Virus record (IMG/VR): IMGVR_UViG_2690316115_000017
DNA from: a virus
Taxonomy: Duplodnaviria; Heunggongvirae; Uroviricota; Caudoviricetes
Reading direction: 5' to 3' (one strand)
Length of the DNA: 5,166 nt
Made by a program: the position numbers and the translations under genes. This document shows positions 1 through 5,166 of this stretch, piece after piece; position 1 is the stretch's first letter; each line of letters starts with the position of its first letter. The notes below the pieces were generated by a model. It was not told the origin of the DNA, did no database searches, and saw only the letters and a list, made by a program, of their open reading frames with translations.

Positions 1-519
1 GGCAGGCACCGTCACCGCCTCCGTGATCCCGCAGTTCCGGTCCGGCGTGATGCGGTAGAACACCTCGCCGTCATCCGCCACCAGAGGTTCAACCCGGCTC
101 CAGTCCAGAATACGCAGTTCTTTGATCTGCCCCCGGGAGTTACGGATTTTCAGCACCACCGTATTGCCGTGACGCAGTTTGGCGTTCAGCCACAGTTCAA
201 AAAACTGGATACGATTCTGCTGTGCATTGGGACGACGACAGAGACGGGCAATATCCCCCTGCCGTTTTTCACGGCGGATCCCCTGTGTATCGGTCTGCAT
301 CAGGCGCAGTCGCATTTTGGCGATATCCTGGGATATCAGCGAAATGCAAGAAAACACCGCATGAAAGGAGAGGACACTTTCCGGATCGGCTTTCACGCCC
401 TGCTGCCAGGCACCGGCAAAAGGCTCAGCCACCGCCTGAAACAGGCTGGTCCAGCCCACCTCTTTTACATCACGTCCTGATTTCTGGTTTTTTCGGGTTC
501 GCCGCAAAAGGTTCCACAT
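1..519 (-). CDS. Phage portal protein (HK97-family-like), partial: N-terminal ~173 codons only, gene continues past the left edge of the window
   Basis: Not in the supplied ORF track because it has no stop in the window. My manual minus-strand translation in the frame of plus codons 1-3, 4-6, ... is open from the ATG at 517-519 to position 1, with an in-frame stop just upstream at 535-537. It gives MWNLLRRTRKNQKSGRDVKEVGWTSLFQAVAEPFAGAWQQGVKADPESVLSFHAVFSCISLISQDIAKMRLRLMQTDTQGIRREKRQGDIARLCRRPNAQQNRIQFFELWLNAKLRHGNTVVLKIRNSRGQIKELRILDWSRVEPLVADDGEVFYRITPDRNCGITEAVTVPA. This matches my memory of the conserved N-terminal region of HK97-type portals (pattern PE.AL..SAV.AC...I....A.LPL.LY.R, then GN.Y..I.R...G.I.EL..L.P..V....DG.V.Y). 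A GGAG lies 8 nt upstream of the ATG. The start is uncertain: an in-frame GTG at 457-459 is an alternative. Confidence 0.75.
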   Translation of the reverse strand, partial: MWNLLRRTRKNQKSGRDVKEVGWTSLFQAVAEPFAGAWQQGVKADPESVLSFHAVFSCISLISQDIAKMRLRLMQTDTQGIRREKRQGDIARLCRRPNAQQNRIQFFELWLNAKLRHGNTVVLKIRNSRGQIKELRILDWSRVEPLVADDGEVFYRITPDRNCGITEAVTVPA

Positions 520-686
520 TCGCCATGCTCCGCATCACGTTTCTTTTTCTGACCTGCCGGACGTCGCACTGTGATGTACTCCGCCTTCCCCAGGCGAACC
601 AGCACCTCCGCACACGGCTGTGCCACATCACGGATATCCCCGGCCCGGGCATCATGCGTGCCCTGCAGATATCGGATCTTTGCCAT
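465..686 (-). CDS. Hypothetical 73-aa protein between the capsid and portal genes; function unknown, may be spurious
   Basis: ORF-track entry with an ATG at 684-686, located 44 nt downstream of the capsid stop. It has only a weak SD (AGG about 2 nt before the ATG) and overlaps the putative portal start by about 55 nt in another frame. I recognise no family motif. The position, a small ORF just before portal, is where lambda-like phages encode gpW-type head-completion proteins, but I see no sequence similarity. Confidence 0.3.
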   Translation of the reverse strand: MAKIRYLQGTHDARAGDIRDVAQPCAEVLVRLGKAEYITVRRPAGQKKKRDAEHGECGTFCGEPEKTRNQDVM

Positions 687-730: not shown

Positions 731-2668
731 TCAGCCGCCGGACGCACTGCCGTAGTTCACTCCGGTGATCACCGCCACCGCCGCAGTACGGCGACGACGC
801 CAGTTGATCCAGCGCTCCGCACGGATGGCCACGCTGCCTGTCTGGAACATGGAAACCAGCTCCACCGGGGACGGCGTAGTACTGTCGCCGGTCGGTTCAG
901 ACTGCATCTCCAGTGACGCTTCACGGGACATATCCACCGCCACACCGCCGTCATCAGCCAGATAAATATCCGGCGCATTCACCAGCACCAGCTGGTCACC
1001 CACGTACTGGGAGACAATCACCGGCAGGCCCTGGAAGGTGCCGCCAAGCAGGGTCATGTCCGGGTATTCCTTCTGACCCAGCGCATTTTTACGCATGGAC
1101 AGCGCCAGGGCATTCGTGCTGGACATCAGCCAGACCGCACCGGTGGGCTGCAGGTTTGCTGCCACAAACTGTCCAAACGCAGCCTCTGCATCCGCATCCG
1201 GGTTACCGGTTGATGCCGTGCCCTTCACATCATGGGTGATGGACGCCGGGGAGACATCTGCCACTGCGGCTTTTTTCGGGTCCACAAAGTCTGTATCCAG
1301 ACGCGCCACCACCGCTTCCGCCAGCGCATTACGGACCAGTGCATCAGCAGCCGGACTGGAAAAACGGATCAATTCTTCCGTCAGTACCGCAATGGCCGAC
1401 ACTTTCGCATGACTGAAGGTGATGGATTCAAAATCAAACTTCGTCAGGGGTTTTGCCTTACCCTCACCCACCCAGCCGGCAGCACCGCCGGACACCTGGG
1501 CGTGCACACGGATATTGAACGGCACCTGACGAAGTGCAGGGATCCCGCCCTGACCAAATCGCCCGATAATGGTCTGCGGACGCAGGTAATCAATAAAGTC
1601 CTGTGCGTATTCCTGATATTCAGACAGGCTGCCTGCCCACTGCGGATCCGTGGTGGTCCCCGCGCCCACTGCCGATTTCAGGACATGATGCAGACGGCTG
1701 TCATCCGGATACTGACGACGGGCCACTTCCAGGGCTTCAGATCGGACGCCTTTAGCCGCAGCCAGCGATTTGGCAAAGCGGGCGAAGCCAATCCCCTTAT
1801 CCAGTTTCTGCTCCACACGGATCACCGGCGCAGAAGCCACCGCGGCCACATTCCCGTTACCGGCCTGTTTCACCGGCTGCGCCGTGGCGGCCTTACCGGC
1901 TTCCAGTTCACGCAGGCGCTTCAGGTGCGCATCCACCTGACGGATTTCCGCTGCGGTGTTGTCGTAATGCTCTTCCTCCTCCACATCCAGCGTGCGCCCT
2001 TCCTCTGCGGCTTTGGTCATGACCTCCTCAAGGGAGGCTGCCAGCGCTGCACGCTTGTTTTCAAAACTTTTAATCTGTTCGCCAGTATTCATTATGGTCT
2101 TTTCCTTATGAAAAACGGTTGTTGACTGTGCCGCAGCGCCGGCAGAAGATGCGATTTTCACCACCGGTTTCCGGTTGCCGGACGCGGCAGAAAACGGGCG
2201 GTCGTAAGATTTAATGGTCCGGATGGTGCATTCCGCATTCGCGGGCACGGTGACGGCAGACACCTCCATCAGTTCCCAGCGCAGAAAATGCAGTCCGCCT
2301 CCGTCCAGAAAGGTGTATTCATGGGGACGGAAGCCCACGGACAGCCCCCTGACCAGCCCGGTCTTAATGGCCGCCCAGACCTCATCCAGCCTGGCAGCCA
2401 GTTGCGACGGCATATCCGGTACGGGCTTCACCAGTGTTGCCGTGATTTCCAGCCCTTCCCTGACCCGACGCACCGTACACTGGCCTACAGGGCGGGAATG
2501 GTCATGCTGCCAGAGAAACGGGATCGTACTGCCAAACTCCGCCCCCTCCGGCTCCAGGATGTCACCATCCCGATCCGGAGAAGGCGTTGACGCAATCCCG
2601 GTGATCACCCGTTCATCCTCACTGAAGGATTTCACCGTCAGCAGGGAACAGGCCCGTTTAAGAGTCAC
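731..2668 (-). CDS. Prohead protease - scaffold/delta region - major capsid protein fusion polyprotein (HK97-type head maturation protease plus HK97-fold MCP), 645 aa
   Basis: ORF-track 645-aa ORF. The N-terminal ~160 aa carries HK97 prohead-protease (peptidase S78/U35) hallmarks: ITGIASTPSPDRDGDILEPEGAEF, IPFLWQHDHSRPVG, GLVRGLSVGFRP, LHFLRWELMEVSAVTVPAN. Residues ~195-290 are E/A/K/R-rich and coiled-coil-like (EQIKSFENKRAALAASLEEVMTKAAEEGRTLDVEEEEHYDNTAAEIRQVDAHLKRLRELEAGKA), typical of a scaffold or delta domain. The C-terminal ~350 aa resembles HK97-fold major capsid proteins. Start is GTG at 2666-2668, preceded by a perfect SD AGGAGG (plus 2674-2679) with a 5-nt spacer; no in-frame ATG is available upstream. 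Confidence 0.88.
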   Translation of the reverse strand: MTLKRACSLLTVKSFSEDERVITGIASTPSPDRDGDILEPEGAEFGSTIPFLWQHDHSRPVGQCTVRRVREGLEITATLVKPVPDMPSQLAARLDEVWAAIKTGLVRGLSVGFRPHEYTFLDGGGLHFLRWELMEVSAVTVPANAECTIRTIKSYDRPFSAASGNRKPVVKIASSAGAAAQSTTVFHKEKTIMNTGEQIKSFENKRAALAASLEEVMTKAAEEGRTLDVEEEEHYDNTAAEIRQVDAHLKRLRELEAGKAATAQPVKQAGNGNVAAVASAPVIRVEQKLDKGIGFARFAKSLAAAKGVRSEALEVARRQYPDDSRLHHVLKSAVGAGTTTDPQWAGSLSEYQEYAQDFIDYLRPQTIIGRFGQGGIPALRQVPFNIRVHAQVSGGAAGWVGEGKAKPLTKFDFESITFSHAKVSAIAVLTEELIRFSSPAADALVRNALAEAVVARLDTDFVDPKKAAVADVSPASITHDVKGTASTGNPDADAEAAFGQFVAANLQPTGAVWLMSSTNALALSMRKNALGQKEYPDMTLLGGTFQGLPVIVSQYVGDQLVLVNAPDIYLADDGGVAVDMSREASLEMQSEPTGDSTTPSPVELVSMFQTGSVAIRAERWINWRRRRTAAVAVITGVNYGSASGG

Positions 2669-2680
2669 ATCAGCCTCCTG

Positions 2681-2706
2681 AAAATAAAAAAACCGCCGCA
2701 GCGGTT
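2681..2706 (-). terminator. Intrinsic-terminator-like hairpin on the minus strand between terL and the capsid gene (AACCGC-UGCG-GCGGUU followed by UUUUUUUUAUUUU)
   Basis: Read directly from the sequence: plus-strand aaccgccgcagcggtt at 2691-2706, preceded on the plus strand by the A-run aaaataaaaa at 2681-2690, which is a U-run downstream of the hairpin on the minus transcript. The stem is short (6 bp), so strength is uncertain. It sits 26 nt after the terL stop and ends 1 nt upstream of the capsid-gene SD. Confidence 0.45.
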
Positions 2707-2731
2707 CATGATGGTTACAGGGTGAGCAGGG

Positions 2732-4393
2732 TTATATGAAAAAAACCTCATACGCTTTCTTTTTCGGTTCCGGATTCAGGGACATCAGGGACACCGCATT
2801 GAAGAGCGCCATCAGAGGGTCAATTTTTCCCCGTCCGCTGGCCTGTTTGGTGATAAGAATGGCGTTACCTTTAGGCTCCACCCGGGCATTGCCAACGCAC
2901 CAGGCCATCAGTGGCTGACCACCATGCACCAGCACTCCCTCAGCCAGTTTGCGCTCGGTGGTTTTGATGGCCCCGCCCAGCTTCCAGCCCTGGCTTATCC
3001 CCACCACACTCTCATCGGGGATCCCGGCTTCCGCCAGTGAATCCAGAATCTGCCCCACACCTGACGGGTCAATACCGATATGATCCAGTAACTCAGCCTC
3101 ATGAATACGACGCACATACTCCGCCACTTCCGCCGTGTCATCCCCGACCCGACGGACAATCGTCATGTCTCCACAGGCCACAAAATCCTGAAACCGGGAT
3201 GCCTCACTCTTCCGTCTGACCACCGCGGTTTCATGCACCCAGGCATGGCCCCAGCCCAGCCATTCGCGGGTTTCCCTGTCACGGCCAGTCACGTACATTC
3301 CCAGCAGATCATCCAGGCCCCCGCCGTCAATCCCCACCGTCACCACATCAGCGCGCTGCAGGATATCGTCCAGGCTGACGCGCCTGCCCTGCTGCTCCCA
3401 GAAATCCGCGCCCGCCCAGCGGTCAGAACGCAGGGCAAGACCGATTTCCACATTGGCGTGTTTTGACATGAAACCGCGGAAAGTCTCTTCCCCGGCTTCC
3501 CGGGCTTTACGATACTCCCGGTACAGAAAGGCCTCATCCACCGAATAACCGAGATTCGGGTTAACCATGGCGAGGTTTTCCATCAGCAGGTGAGCCCCGC
3601 TTTCCACCATTTCAGGAGGATGCTCAAATATCACCGGCAGAAAGTGCGGATCATGAATTTTGCCGTCACGGACATCCCGGGCGTACTGCAGTTTCTGCCT
3701 GAACACCCCGGCAGGCGGTTCATTCGACTGGGTGGTTGTGTACACCACAAACCCTTCCGGACGTGAAGCCAGCCCGCCGATGGCTTCACGTAGCATGTCT
3801 TCCGCTTTGTACTGCTTGCCAAACAGCCACAGTTCATCAATCAGTGTCCCCACGGACTTGATACCGGACACCGTATTCGGATCGGCTGCCACCACCTTCA
3901 GGGTGGTGTCCGTCACCCGATGGGTGATGGTCCGGATATGTGTCTGCACCTGACAGAGGTCATCCAGATCATCGTCCCGTCGTACCATATCCCTGGCAGG
4001 GTTGAAGGCGTTAGCCGCCACCTCCACGGTCGGGGCCAGAATGGTGTAGCCCGCCGCCTGCCGCCAGTTCAGTAACAGCGCCGTCATCATGATCCCCGCG
4101 GCCAGCGTGGACTTCGAGTTTTTCTTGGGGATAAGGATAAAAACTTCCTTGATATGGCGTACACCGGTCTGCGCATCATAGGAGCCAAACAGGGCCGCCA
4201 CCAGGTCAAACACCCACGGTGCACAGGACTCCCCGAACGTCGGGCTACCAGGTGCATCCACAATCCGCAGTTGTTTAAAAATCGCCAGGGCATGTGCGGC
4301 CTCGTCCGGATAAATCGGATCCGGAATAATCGACAGCCCCTTTTTCAGGCGCTCTGCCCAGTCCGGACATGCCGTGCTCCATACAGGTATCAT
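2732..4393 (-). CDS. terL: Phage terminase large subunit (Terminase_1-type ATPase/nuclease), 553 aa
   Basis: ORF-track 553-aa ORF. It has an N-terminal P-loop-like motif ILIPKKNSKSTLAAG, as in the Walker A region of terminase large subunits, and its overall length and architecture fit TerL. The ATG at 4391-4393 overlaps the terS stop (ATGA), consistent with translational coupling. SD GAGGA lies at plus 4400-4404 with a 6-nt spacer. Confidence 0.88.
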   Translation of the reverse strand: MIPVWSTACPDWAERLKKGLSIIPDPIYPDEAAHALAIFKQLRIVDAPGSPTFGESCAPWVFDLVAALFGSYDAQTGVRHIKEVFILIPKKNSKSTLAAGIMMTALLLNWRQAAGYTILAPTVEVAANAFNPARDMVRRDDDLDDLCQVQTHIRTITHRVTDTTLKVVAADPNTVSGIKSVGTLIDELWLFGKQYKAEDMLREAIGGLASRPEGFVVYTTTQSNEPPAGVFRQKLQYARDVRDGKIHDPHFLPVIFEHPPEMVESGAHLLMENLAMVNPNLGYSVDEAFLYREYRKAREAGEETFRGFMSKHANVEIGLALRSDRWAGADFWEQQGRRVSLDDILQRADVVTVGIDGGGLDDLLGMYVTGRDRETREWLGWGHAWVHETAVVRRKSEASRFQDFVACGDMTIVRRVGDDTAEVAEYVRRIHEAELLDHIGIDPSGVGQILDSLAEAGIPDESVVGISQGWKLGGAIKTTERKLAEGVLVHGGQPLMAWCVGNARVEPKGNAILITKQASGRGKIDPLMALFNAVSLMSLNPEPKKKAYEVFFI

Positions 4394-4953
4394 CCGCTTT
4401 CCTCATTCTGGTTATTCACCACCAGTCGGGGAGGTGGTGGCACCGCAAAACGGTTAGCCGCTTTTTTCGCGGCATCACCTTTTGCCGATTTTTTACCGGC
4501 ATCGCCTTTTTTATGGTGTGTGAACTGCGCCAGTCGCCAGGCCGCATCCAGTGCCAGTTTCGGGTCAATTATCAGGTTTTCCACCAGGATCTGCCCCATA
4601 GCTTTCACCGGATCGGGAAGACCATCCTCCATATATTCAATACCATGAGATATCACCGCGGGCGGAGGCATCTCCGGATTGTTTTCGTCCGGCTGTGGTA
4701 TTGCAGCCACCTCACGGCGACGGGGTTTATCCTCCTGCTCTGATTTTTTCTGCCGGTAAACAGGAACCTCATCCACCTCCACCGTTTCGCACTGTTTACG
4801 GGCTATAAACGCGAGCACCTCCGGATCTTTTGCCAGCTGCGAGCCTTTAACCCTGGCGGTCTTCGCCGAATAACCAGCGGCAATGGCTGACGCTGTTTTG
4901 TTTTTCCCGGACATGAGCGCCAGCGCAAATTTTCGTTTTTGCGTTGTCAGCAC
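4390..4953 (-). CDS. terS: Phage terminase small subunit (Terminase_2-type N-terminal HTH DNA-binding domain), 187 aa
   Basis: The N-terminus LTTQKRKFALALMSGKNKTASAIAAGYSAKTARVKGSQLAKDPEVLAFIA matches the characteristic Terminase_2 motif (LT.KQ..F...Y...GN.T.AAI.AGYS.KTA...G..L). It lies immediately upstream of terL and overlaps it. Start is GTG at 4951-4953 with SD GGAGG (plus 4959-4963) and a 5-nt spacer; an in-frame stop lies upstream at 5017-5019 with no ATG in between. The C-terminal part is a Lys/Ala/Gly/Pro-rich low-complexity tail. Confidence 0.82.
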   Translation of the reverse strand: MLTTQKRKFALALMSGKNKTASAIAAGYSAKTARVKGSQLAKDPEVLAFIARKQCETVEVDEVPVYRQKKSEQEDKPRRREVAAIPQPDENNPEMPPPAVISHGIEYMEDGLPDPVKAMGQILVENLIIDPKLALDAAWRLAQFTHHKKGDAGKKSAKGDAAKKAANRFAVPPPPRLVVNNQNEESG

Positions 4954-5033: not shown

Positions 5034-5166
5034 TGAGGTAGCCTGAGTTTAACGGACACTCCTTCCTGAAATAGAATGGCATCAGAAGGAGCTAATAATG
5101 AGCAGAAAAACCCAACGTTACTCTAAAGAGTTCAAAGCCGAAGCTGTCAGAACGGTTCTTGAAAAT
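5034..5166 (+). mobile_element. Left end of an IS3-family insertion sequence (IS600-like), partial: terminal inverted repeat beginning TGAGGTAGCC..., continuing past the right edge of the window
   Basis: The element starts with TG, as IS3-family ends do, and is followed by the RBS (AGGAG at about 5085-5089) and start of an OrfA-type transposase whose N-terminus I recall as IS600 OrfA. Composition changes sharply from the GC-rich phage DNA. The boundary is good to a few bp only; the right end and target-site duplication are outside the window. Confidence 0.75.
5098..5166 (+). CDS. IS3-family transposase OrfA (HTH subunit), N-terminal 23 codons only
   Basis: Manual translation from the ATG at 5098 gives MSRKTQRYSKEFKAEAVRTVLEN, which matches the N-terminus of IS600-type OrfA as I remember it. 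An AGGAG SD lies about 8 nt upstream. The ORF runs off the window. Confidence 0.8.
   Translation, partial: MSRKTQRYSKEFKAEAVRTVLEN

Follow-up and report, generated by a model that had tools for sequence, protein, structure and literature searches.

A fused protease-scaffold-capsid gene of Stx-converting phages carries a conserved candidate internal start for a nested capsid precursor

In a 5,166 nt stretch of the virus record IMGVR_UViG_2690316115_000017 (hereafter the window), a prohead protease, a scaffold-like region and a major capsid protein are encoded by one continuous ORF of 645 aa, which is probably expressed as two nested, in-frame cistrons, one for protease-scaffold-capsid and one for scaffold-capsid. 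The second cistron would begin at Met193, where comparison of related loci points to a conserved internal start codon with a ribosome-binding site of its own. The 453 aa product proposed to arise from it (731..2092 on the minus strand; 48.2 kDa) would be a complete HK97-type capsid precursor, including the delta domain.

The full-length ORF (731..2668, minus strand; 69.1 kDa) comprises an S78 protease, a linker, a delta/scaffold region and a major capsid protein of the HK97 fold, and is uninterrupted by any stop or frameshift in the window sequence. This single-ORF arrangement, proposed in the initial annotation, is confirmed by Pfam, PHROG, NCBIfam and AlphaFold2; the match to PHROG 617 ('major head protein') covers residues 1–639 and the full 626-position profile (E 1e-261). 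The start codon is a GTG (2668..2666), five nt after a Shine-Dalgarno sequence, AGGAGG (2674..2679), with an anti-SD duplex energy of −10.3 kcal/mol. All of the neighbouring genes are on the same strand. The large terminase subunit gene, terL (2732..4393), lies directly upstream, and the terL-capsid intergenic region has a terminator-like hairpin and T-run (2690..2707, minus strand), seen in a consensus scan only. A 73 aa ORF of PHROG 829 (465..686) sits between the capsid gene and the portal gene, which starts at 507 and continues past the window edge. A promoter scan, which is a weak test, found no internal sigma-70 promoter on the minus strand that could give a shorter transcript. The source of the gene is an HK97-like lambdoid prophage of the long-tailed, Stx1/Stx2-converting type of EHEC (Marienburgvirus-like).

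The N-terminal region (residues 1–162; 2183..2668, minus strand) is a prohead serine protease domain, as had been proposed. Pfam Peptidase_S78 (PF04586) matches residues 48–152 with 34.7 bits (cut-off 21), while the stricter equivalog model TIGR01543 is not reached (46.4 against a cut-off of 59). By BLASTP, HK97 gp4 aligns to this region (E 9e-8), with gp4 H65 opposite H55 and gp4 S114 opposite S110; the two gp4 residues are those we take to be the catalytic His and Ser of the HK97 protease. The dyad is intact (codons at 2506..2504 and 2341..2339, minus strand), and H55, S110 and E135 are invariant across sets of 48 and 37 diverse homologues. In the AlphaFold2 model, the region forms a beta-rich domain with pLDDT values of 80–90. 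The alignment to gp4 stops at gp4 residue 162 of 225, and the protease is not a stand-alone protein with its own C-terminal tail, being joined in frame to the capsid protein. No ClpP or S49 match was found in the ORF by Pfam search, and a profile of the protease domain gave no match to PDB sequences. Foldseek was run on the whole model, and the matches listed are all capsid proteins.

The AlphaFold2 model of the 645 aa protein has a mean pLDDT of 77.9. Between protease and capsid precursor lies a disordered linker (residues 163–192; 2093..2182, minus strand), with pLDDT below 50 at residues 166–193. In an alignment of 150 representatives, both its sequence and its length are hypervariable among fused relatives. 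The linker is followed by a predicted helical hairpin (residues 195–262; 1883..2086, minus strand) with helices at 195–223 and 229–262 and a pLDDT of about 85, suggesting that an N-terminal helical scaffold (delta) domain precedes the capsid body. After a second disordered stretch (264–285), the capsid shell region extends from residue 293 to residue 645 (734..1792, minus strand), as delineated by Pfam, AlphaFold2 and Foldseek, and consists of N-terminal helices (293–365), an E-loop with K406, a spine helix (439–462), and the A and P domains. Pfam Phage_capsid (PF05065) matches residues 386–635 (54.6 bits, cut-off 24.2). NCBIfam TIGR01554 (major_cap_HK97), which models the capsid precursor including the delta domain, matches residues 204–584 (79.2 bits, cut-off 27.5) over profile positions 3–355 of 385. 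The Foldseek matches of the capsid body are Bxb1 (E 3e-10), HK97 prohead I and II, D3 and T5, all with a probability of 1.00.

At the sequence level, the capsid parts are too diverged for BLASTP: HK97 gp5 gave no significant match to the ORF by this method, and hhalign of the family profile against gp5 returned just a 24-column C-terminal match. Residues 340–374 aligned weakly with gp5 107–141, which hints at a maturation cleavage near residues 336–340; more broadly, a cleavage site would be expected somewhere between about residue 264 and residue 340. The chainmail cross-link residues of HK97 are K169, N356 and E363. By local motif, within a weak alignment (hhalign probability 0.14%), K406-P407 may correspond to K169-P170 and E618 to E363. 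The position of the chainmail Asn in the same weak alignment is N in most of the family and G611 in the E. coli clade of this gene.

The fusion is widespread. At least 80% of the window is carried by 1244 complete E. coli genomes and by 167 phage records, and the same gene is found in more than 160 records of Stx-converting phages. The protein belongs to a 90%-identity cluster of 9916 members. Fused homologues at 35–78% identity occur across many bacterial phyla, and the fused form accounts for about 145 of the best 150 representatives of 50%-identity clusters. Both forms exist among relatives, with 58 of 80 loci from many phyla being fused and the capsid tree indicating at least 11 switches between fused and split; deep clades consisting of fused forms alone are also present in this tree. 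The junction of AAA-protease-capsid fusions was not captured in the viral and metagenome scans.

These data bear on whether the fusion could be an artefact, created by a sequencing or assembly error, or by the loss of one base that recently inactivated the gene in a decaying prophage. If a single base were gained or lost in the T5 run of the linker (2115..2111, minus strand), the junction would indeed become a classical stop-SD-start boundary, but 70 of the 82 loci compared (nearly all of them near-identical viral contigs) share the same junction sequence, the protein cluster has 9916 members, and isolated Stx-converting phages carry the gene, as do the 1244 complete genomes. Even orthologues at 35% identity are still fused, and the catalytic dyad is invariant among them. 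An error or pseudogene is almost certainly not the explanation.

The initial annotation had described the fusion as unusual rather than unprecedented, and this holds: the gene is labelled "major head protein/prohead proteinase" in GenBank, a curated NCBIfam model exists for such proteins (NF045541, 'prohead protease/major capsid protein fusion protein'), and protease-capsid fusions have been published for archaeal proviruses (PMC6563490) and, as reported in PMC12315714 citing Effantin 2010, for Gifsy-2. Since it is annotated in GenBank, spanned by PHROG 617 and has published analogues, the fusion was already known, and as such it is an ordinary, annotated feature of very common EHEC prophages.

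The candidate internal start is the ATG of Met193 (2092..2090, minus strand). It is preceded by a Shine-Dalgarno-like UAAGGA (2103..2108, minus strand) with an aligned spacing of 8 nt and a duplex energy of −6.2 kcal/mol. Among the fused representatives, 131 of 145 have a Met 1–9 residues before a conserved EQI motif, and those without it mostly have Val or Leu at that position. At the DNA level, ATG, GTG or TTG occupies the Met193 position in 57 of 58 diverse fused loci: both of the Val codons among these are GTG and the Leu codon is TTG. The Val codon of P0121, which was checked separately, is likewise GTG. Capsid-only homologues have their first residue at exactly the Met193 position, and the alignment to TIGR01554 opens soon after it, at residue 204. 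The junction of some split loci reads TAAGGA-N-ATG and its TAA is an in-frame stop, while the TAA of the window misses the frame by one base.

The sequences upstream of this codon resemble those of genuine start sites. The anti-SD duplex has a mean energy of −7.5 kcal/mol and reaches −5 or lower in 86% of loci, compared to a mean of −2.75 for 834 other in-frame ATGs, 18% of which reach −5 (Mann-Whitney p = 1e-23, a value that overstates independence because the loci are phylogenetically related, although the upstream 24-mers are unique in 56 of the 58 loci). The signal is no weaker than at the 5′ start (−6.8) and at the capsid start of split relatives (−5.8). An SD core is present in 55 loci; its distance from the start codon is 4–9 nt in 54 of them and 15 nt in the remaining one. 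Since the core is found in each of the three codon phases, and encodes at least 40 different tetrapeptides, it is the nucleotides that are constrained and not the peptide; AAGGAAA, for example, is kept in relatives from Salmonella, Serratia and Leclercia despite their different linker peptides. For the same reason, a conserved K-E-G-x-x-M peptide or cleavage motif was rejected, the GGAG core being found in all three phases and under at least 40 peptides. The mRNA is also open at this point. The 50 nt around the internal start are unusually unstructured (mean z +1.64, z > 0 in 98% of loci), and in the window they fold at −4.6 kcal/mol, compared with −14.3 kcal/mol for the background, and have a GC content of 32% against 61%. 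Taken with the conservation of the start codon, these features make it fairly likely that initiation at Met193 is real and functionally important.

Shine-Dalgarno-like sequences inside genes can act as mere pause sites. Part of the start-site signal could also be inherited from recent split ancestors, as fused and split forms interconvert often; this reading is weakened by the deep, all-fused clades, in which the start is kept and the surrounding linker is hypervariable.

A true 1:1 polyprotein has to be weighed against these observations. If the 645 aa product alone were made, each capsid subunit would bring its own protease and scaffold, to be digested after assembly, and the internal ATG and Shine-Dalgarno sequence would be relics of a former gene boundary. 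The uninterrupted ORF and its strong 5′ Shine-Dalgarno sequence fit such a scheme, and by a rough estimate that assumes T=7, 415 copies of residues 1–290 would take up about 30–55% of the procapsid interior, which leaves the scheme physically feasible. Frequent switching between fused and split forms could keep re-seeding relic starts, but relics would decay in deep all-fused clades. Nor do relics account well for a start codon kept in 57 of 58 fused loci amid a hypervariable linker, for Shine-Dalgarno sequences of canonical spacing that occur in all codon phases and are as strong as those of real starts, or for the open local mRNA. The initial annotation had left the choice between 1:1 stoichiometry and internal initiation open; the comparative data favour the second, at Met193, and speak against the first, which is unlikely.

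A second product might instead arise by programmed frameshifting. At the T5 run (GTTTTTC, 2116..2110, minus strand), a −1 slip would bring the ribosome to the TAA that lies out of frame in the linker (2108..2106, minus strand), giving a protease-only product besides the fusion. The homopolymeric run, with a stop in the −1 frame immediately after it, is suggestive, but read in the actual frame it does not form a canonical X XXY YYZ heptamer, and no stimulatory structure was found, the region being the least structured part of the ORF. Moreover, neither the T run nor the VFH peptide occurs outside the E. coli clade, and the linkers of relatives at 73–78% identity are quite different. Frameshifting is thus very improbable.

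Expression from two nested cistrons, the favoured reading, suggests the following model. Initiation at GTG 2668 would give the 69 kDa protease-scaffold-capsid fusion, and initiation at ATG 2092, with its own Shine-Dalgarno sequence, a 48 kDa scaffold-capsid protein equivalent to HK97 gp5. Because the capsid part is common to both, the two products would co-assemble in the procapsid, and how strong one initiation site is relative to the other would set the protease-to-capsid ratio. The covalent link would take the protease inside the procapsid, a task for which HK97 gp4 has a separate C-terminal targeting tail. After assembly, the protease would cut away both itself and the scaffold regions, and the mature shell protein would then be roughly 31–38 kDa in size. 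One-base changes in the linker may switch lineages between fused and split forms, and such switches would do little harm, as the capsid protein is translated autonomously in either form. The analysis itself shows the domain identities, the intact dyad and the conservation of the fusion and of the internal start codon with its Shine-Dalgarno sequence and open mRNA; that ribosomes start at this codon, in what ratio the products are made, that they co-assemble and where they are cleaved is inferred.

HK97 gp4 and gp5 share with this gene the S78 His/Ser dyad, the capsid family and fold, and an N-terminal helical scaffold domain that gets cut off. In HK97 they are two separate genes, as the initial annotation stated; the two are adjacent and located after the portal gene, whereas the single ORF here comes after terL and before the portal gene. 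For the tail of gp4 (residues 163–225) there is no counterpart, its place being taken by the covalent linker. For Gifsy-2, a ClpP-like protease and a capsid with gpD-like trimers have reportedly been described; the protease here is not ClpP-like but of the S78 type. The layout of the 645 aa ORF is nevertheless that of the 'tripartite' capsid gene of this lambdoid enterobacterial prophage, with protease, scaffold-like middle and coat in one gene, as presented in papers citing the original study (Effantin et al. 2010, Virology 402:355; cited in PMC8538268, PMC12315714). The same domain order is found in other lineages, including actinobacteriophages with a 'major capsid and protease fusion protein' (e.g., PMC12760985) and thaumarchaeal proviruses in which S78 is fused to the capsid protein (PMC6563490). 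The proteins of NF045541 are also of a different lineage, the present protein scoring 55.1 bits against a cut-off of 525, as are those of PHROG 4523, to which it has a weak match.

Phage Mu I/Z is a nested in-frame pair of protease and scaffold. In lambda C/Nu3, HSV-1 UL26/UL26.5 and HFTV1 gp17/gp17.5 (bioRxiv 10.64898/2026.09.13.751334), the long product is the protease, as here, and a shorter product, translated from an in-frame start within the gene, has the same C-terminus and is its assembly partner, the protease being co-assembled at a low ratio. In these C/Nu3-type systems, the nested product is scaffold alone with the capsid protein separate, and both products have been shown by experiment; here it would be scaffold plus capsid (residues 193–645), and the second product is predicted from comparative data. 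P2 gpO and T1-like phages (bioRxiv 10.1101/2023.05.21.541620) likewise tie the protease covalently to scaffold for entry into the procapsid, but these fusions are protease followed by scaffold and the capsid protein is encoded separately. Literature searches, with the original Gifsy-2 and HK97 protease papers outside their scope, found no report of internal initiation in protease-capsid fusions.

Taken by itself, the fusion alters nothing, being a standard annotated feature of very common EHEC prophages and of a family found across bacterial phyla. Annotation pipelines label the gene 'major capsid protein' or 'prohead protease' alone, and miss the probable second product from Met193. A conserved internal initiation site offers a simple, testable answer to the stoichiometry puzzle of protease-capsid fusions: the 'polyprotein' genes of this family would be nested pairs, in which the internal site makes the bulk of the capsid precursor and the rarer fusion carries the protease. 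In the repeated switching between fused and split forms, nature has run a clean experiment on the targeting of prohead proteases into capsids, with a covalent tether in one form and a separate tail in the other. If undescribed so far, the nested reading would bring the capsid protein itself under the principle known from lambda C/Nu3 and herpesvirus UL26/UL26.5.

The 645-aa ORF occupies window positions 2668..731 (minus strand), as the initial annotation had it, and starts at GTG 2668 with AGGAGG five nt upstream. The N-terminal prohead protease claimed there was confirmed: residues 1–162 are an S78 prohead serine protease (PF04586 above cut-off), and BLASTP aligned this region with residues 25–162 of the HK97 protease gp4 (E 9e-8). 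His55 and Ser110 align in the same comparison with gp4 His65 and Ser114, the catalytic residues of gp4. Two alignments of diverse homologues show no variation at His55, Ser110 or Glu135. Nothing in the 645-aa protein corresponds to the C-terminal 63 residues of gp4. The protease is followed by a linker (residues 163–192), hypervariable in sequence and length in the alignment and predicted to be disordered, then by a predicted helical hairpin (residues 193–262) that fits a delta/scaffold domain, a second stretch predicted to be disordered (residues 264–285), and a capsid body with the HK97 fold (residues 293–645), matched by Foldseek to the capsid proteins of Bxb1, HK97, D3, T5, GTA and cf-PICI at probability 1.00. 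Position 3 of the NCBIfam profile TIGR01554, a model of HK97-type capsid precursors with the delta domain included, aligns at residue 204, so that Met193 to the C-terminus makes up a complete precursor of the gp5 type. The hairpin, TIGR01554 and Foldseek bear out the earlier claim that a scaffold-like middle and the capsid protein share this ORF.

A weak alignment with HK97, together with Pfam coordinates, suggests a maturation cleavage near residues 336–340, though the site may fall at any point from about 264 to 340. By local motif, again in a weak alignment, an Asn position, Lys406-Pro and Glu618 resemble the HK97 cross-link residues N356, K169 and E363. The family consensus FQTNSVAIRAER carries this Asn, where the E. 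coli clade of the window has Gly611 (window codon 838-836, minus strand). If the alignment is right, chainmail cross-links would be possible in most of the family and impossible in the EHEC prophage clade.

Every gene of the window is on the minus strand. The small terminase gene (4953..4390) and large terminase gene, terL (4393..2732), precede the protease-capsid ORF, which is followed by a 73-aa ORF of PHROG 829, of unknown function (686..465), and by the 5′ part of the portal gene (from 507, extending beyond the window edge). The order of head genes (window 4953-1; homologous loci L083-L165) is unusual but conserved: small terminase, large terminase, protease-capsid gene, a short gap or small ORF, portal, a 347–407-aa protein and connector. 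Of 80 diverse loci obtained by scanning a single genome from each species, 74 keep the order capsid then portal and 55 have a recognisable terL upstream of the capsid gene. Unlike in HK97, the capsid gene here precedes the portal gene. The 347–407-aa protein downstream of portal has no Pfam match, and is annotated in phage JLK-2012 as a second 'portal protein'. The 73-aa ORF, lying between the capsid and portal genes with a 43-nt overlap with the portal start, has no Pfam or NCBIfam match and was detected by tblastn only within the E. coli clade; at its position, relatives have 200–400 nt, often without a called gene. Within the 63-nt terL-capsid gap, just upstream of the capsid Shine-Dalgarno (SD) sequence, is a terminator-like hairpin, GAACCGC-TGCG-GCGGTTT, followed by a T-run (2690-2707, minus strand); in HK97, putative terminators are annotated around the protease and capsid genes.

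Long-tailed lambdoid prophages and phages of enterohaemorrhagic E. coli have a head-gene module with 96–99% identity to the window. There are 167 matching phage records, mostly named Stx1a-, Stx2a- or Stx2c-converting phages and including Escherichia phage JLK-2012 (Marienburgvirus), and at least 80% of the window is present in 1244 of 5426 complete E. coli genomes, often in several copies. Almost all related phages and prophages match the window only up to 5033, and the last 133 bases (5034-5166), upstream of the small terminase gene, form a mosaic boundary where relatives carry an HNH endonuclease gene. The gene is annotated in GenBank JQ347801 as 'putative major head protein/prohead proteinase', and its protein cluster at 90% identity has 9916 members. 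P0001 and P0003, E. coli 'proteins' of 1079 and 784 aa that are each the only member of their cluster, have terminase or portal domains joined to the capsid polyprotein; in contrast to the conserved 645-aa form, they look like artefacts of frameshifts or gene calling.

The fusion of protease and capsid is conserved and evolutionarily old. Searching 1.84 billion cluster representatives gave 12,621 relatives, and about 145 of the top 150 representatives (38–54% identity) are full-length fusions of 620–680 aa. The 80 loci span Alpha-, Beta- and Gammaproteobacteria, Actinomycetota, Planctomycetota, Clostridia and others; the fusion is a single ORF in 58 of them. The remaining 22 lack one intact ORF: in 21, protease and capsid are separate genes, through a frame change in the linker (15 loci) or an in-frame stop codon directly ahead of the capsid start (six), and the other (L116) has a frameshift near the capsid C-terminus. 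Conservation across representatives and diverse loci excludes the fusion being an artefact. Two ~1090-aa homologues from distinct 50%-identity clusters (P0123 and P0132; loci L175, L178) carry an N-terminal region of ~440 aa, including an AAA ATPase domain (PF00004; Walker A GPPGTGKT), fused in frame to protease-scaffold-capsid. The P0123 junction keeps the canonical protease start Met; no contigs spanning the AAA-protease-capsid junction of either protein were recovered.

Capsid-only homologues start exactly at the equivalent of Met193 (ATG 2092..2090, minus strand). A Met lies 1–9 residues before the conserved EQI motif in 131 of the 145 fused representatives, and most of the remainder have Val or Leu at this position. 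At the DNA level, 57 of the 58 fused loci have ATG, GTG or TTG there; both Val codons among the loci are GTG, as is that of the homologue P0121 in a separate check, and Leu is encoded by TTG. Base-pairing between the 3′ end of 16S rRNA and the 20 nt before this codon is much stronger than expected, with a mean duplex energy of −7.5 kcal/mol (≤−5 in 86% of loci) versus −2.75 for 834 other in-frame ATGs of the same ORFs, 18% of which reach −5 (Mann-Whitney p = 1e-23). This signal is as strong as that of the 5′ start of the same ORFs (−6.8) and of the capsid start of split relatives (−5.8). In 54 of the 55 loci with an SD core, 4–9 nt separate it from the start codon. Its position varies over all three codon phases, and the tetrapeptides encoded across it number at least 40, so the constraint is on nucleotides. 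Within the ORF, the 50 nt around the internal start have the least structure and the highest AT content (mean fold z +1.64, positive in 98% of fused loci); the window has a fold energy of −4.6 there versus a background of −14.3 kcal/mol, and 32% GC versus 61%. At this site the window has cat aag gaa aag acc ata ATG; UAAGGA occupies 2108..2103 (minus strand). Relatives in Salmonella, Serratia and Leclercia have different linker peptides, yet the same AAAGGAAA 9–10 nt before the ATG. Our literature search, of incomplete coverage, found no paper on a conserved internal initiation site in protease-capsid fusions, and priority is not claimed.

From these conserved initiation signals, we infer that the 645-aa ORF comprises two nested in-frame cistrons, which would yield a 69.1-kDa protease-scaffold-capsid fusion and a 48.2-kDa scaffold-capsid protein. 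The two products would co-assemble via their shared capsid part, so that the covalent tether would bring the protease into the procapsid, and the protease would afterwards remove itself and the scaffold regions. A pure 1:1 polyprotein is a possible but less likely alternative. Its estimated packing, at 30–55% of an assumed T=7 interior, would be tight but not prohibitive, and it leaves the conservation of the start signals unexplained. Frameshifting at the T5 run was rejected, the run not being conserved.

The nested in-frame arrangement proposed here mirrors protease/scaffold gene pairs for which both products have been shown, i.e., lambda C/Nu3, HSV-1 UL26/UL26.5 and gp17/gp17.5 of the archaeal virus HFTV1 (bioRxiv 10.64898/2026.09.13.751334); unlike in those pairs, the nested product would contain the capsid protein. 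The initial annotation considered the fusion unusual rather than unprecedented, and this holds. Passages in PMC12315714 and PMC8538268, citing Effantin 2010, describe a protease-capsid fusion in Gifsy-2; thaumarchaeal proviruses have S78-capsid fusions (PMC6563490); actinobacteriophage annotation includes a 'major capsid and protease fusion protein'; NCBIfam NF045541 is a model of a further established fusion; and PHROG 617 covers the 645-aa gene end to end. The fusion itself is therefore already known, and interest rests mainly on the testable nested-cistron model.

In split relatives (L130-L162), the stand-alone protease ends in a conserved tail motif, VVKLD..PAR.RAKPFVIRxI, which may be a capsid-targeting peptide of the free protease. 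The stop codon of this protease frequently shares bases with the start of the capsid gene (ATGA or GTGA), suggestive of translational coupling. When the fused and split forms were mapped by parsimony onto a neighbour-joining tree built from the capsid part, at least 11 switches between them were required, the root being fused. Some split loci have TAA-GGA-N-ATG with an in-frame stop, whereas in the window the TAA of the same TAAGGA is one base out of frame, beside the T5 run; one-base indels therefore switch the forms. Such switching would be easily tolerated if capsid translation is autonomous in both.
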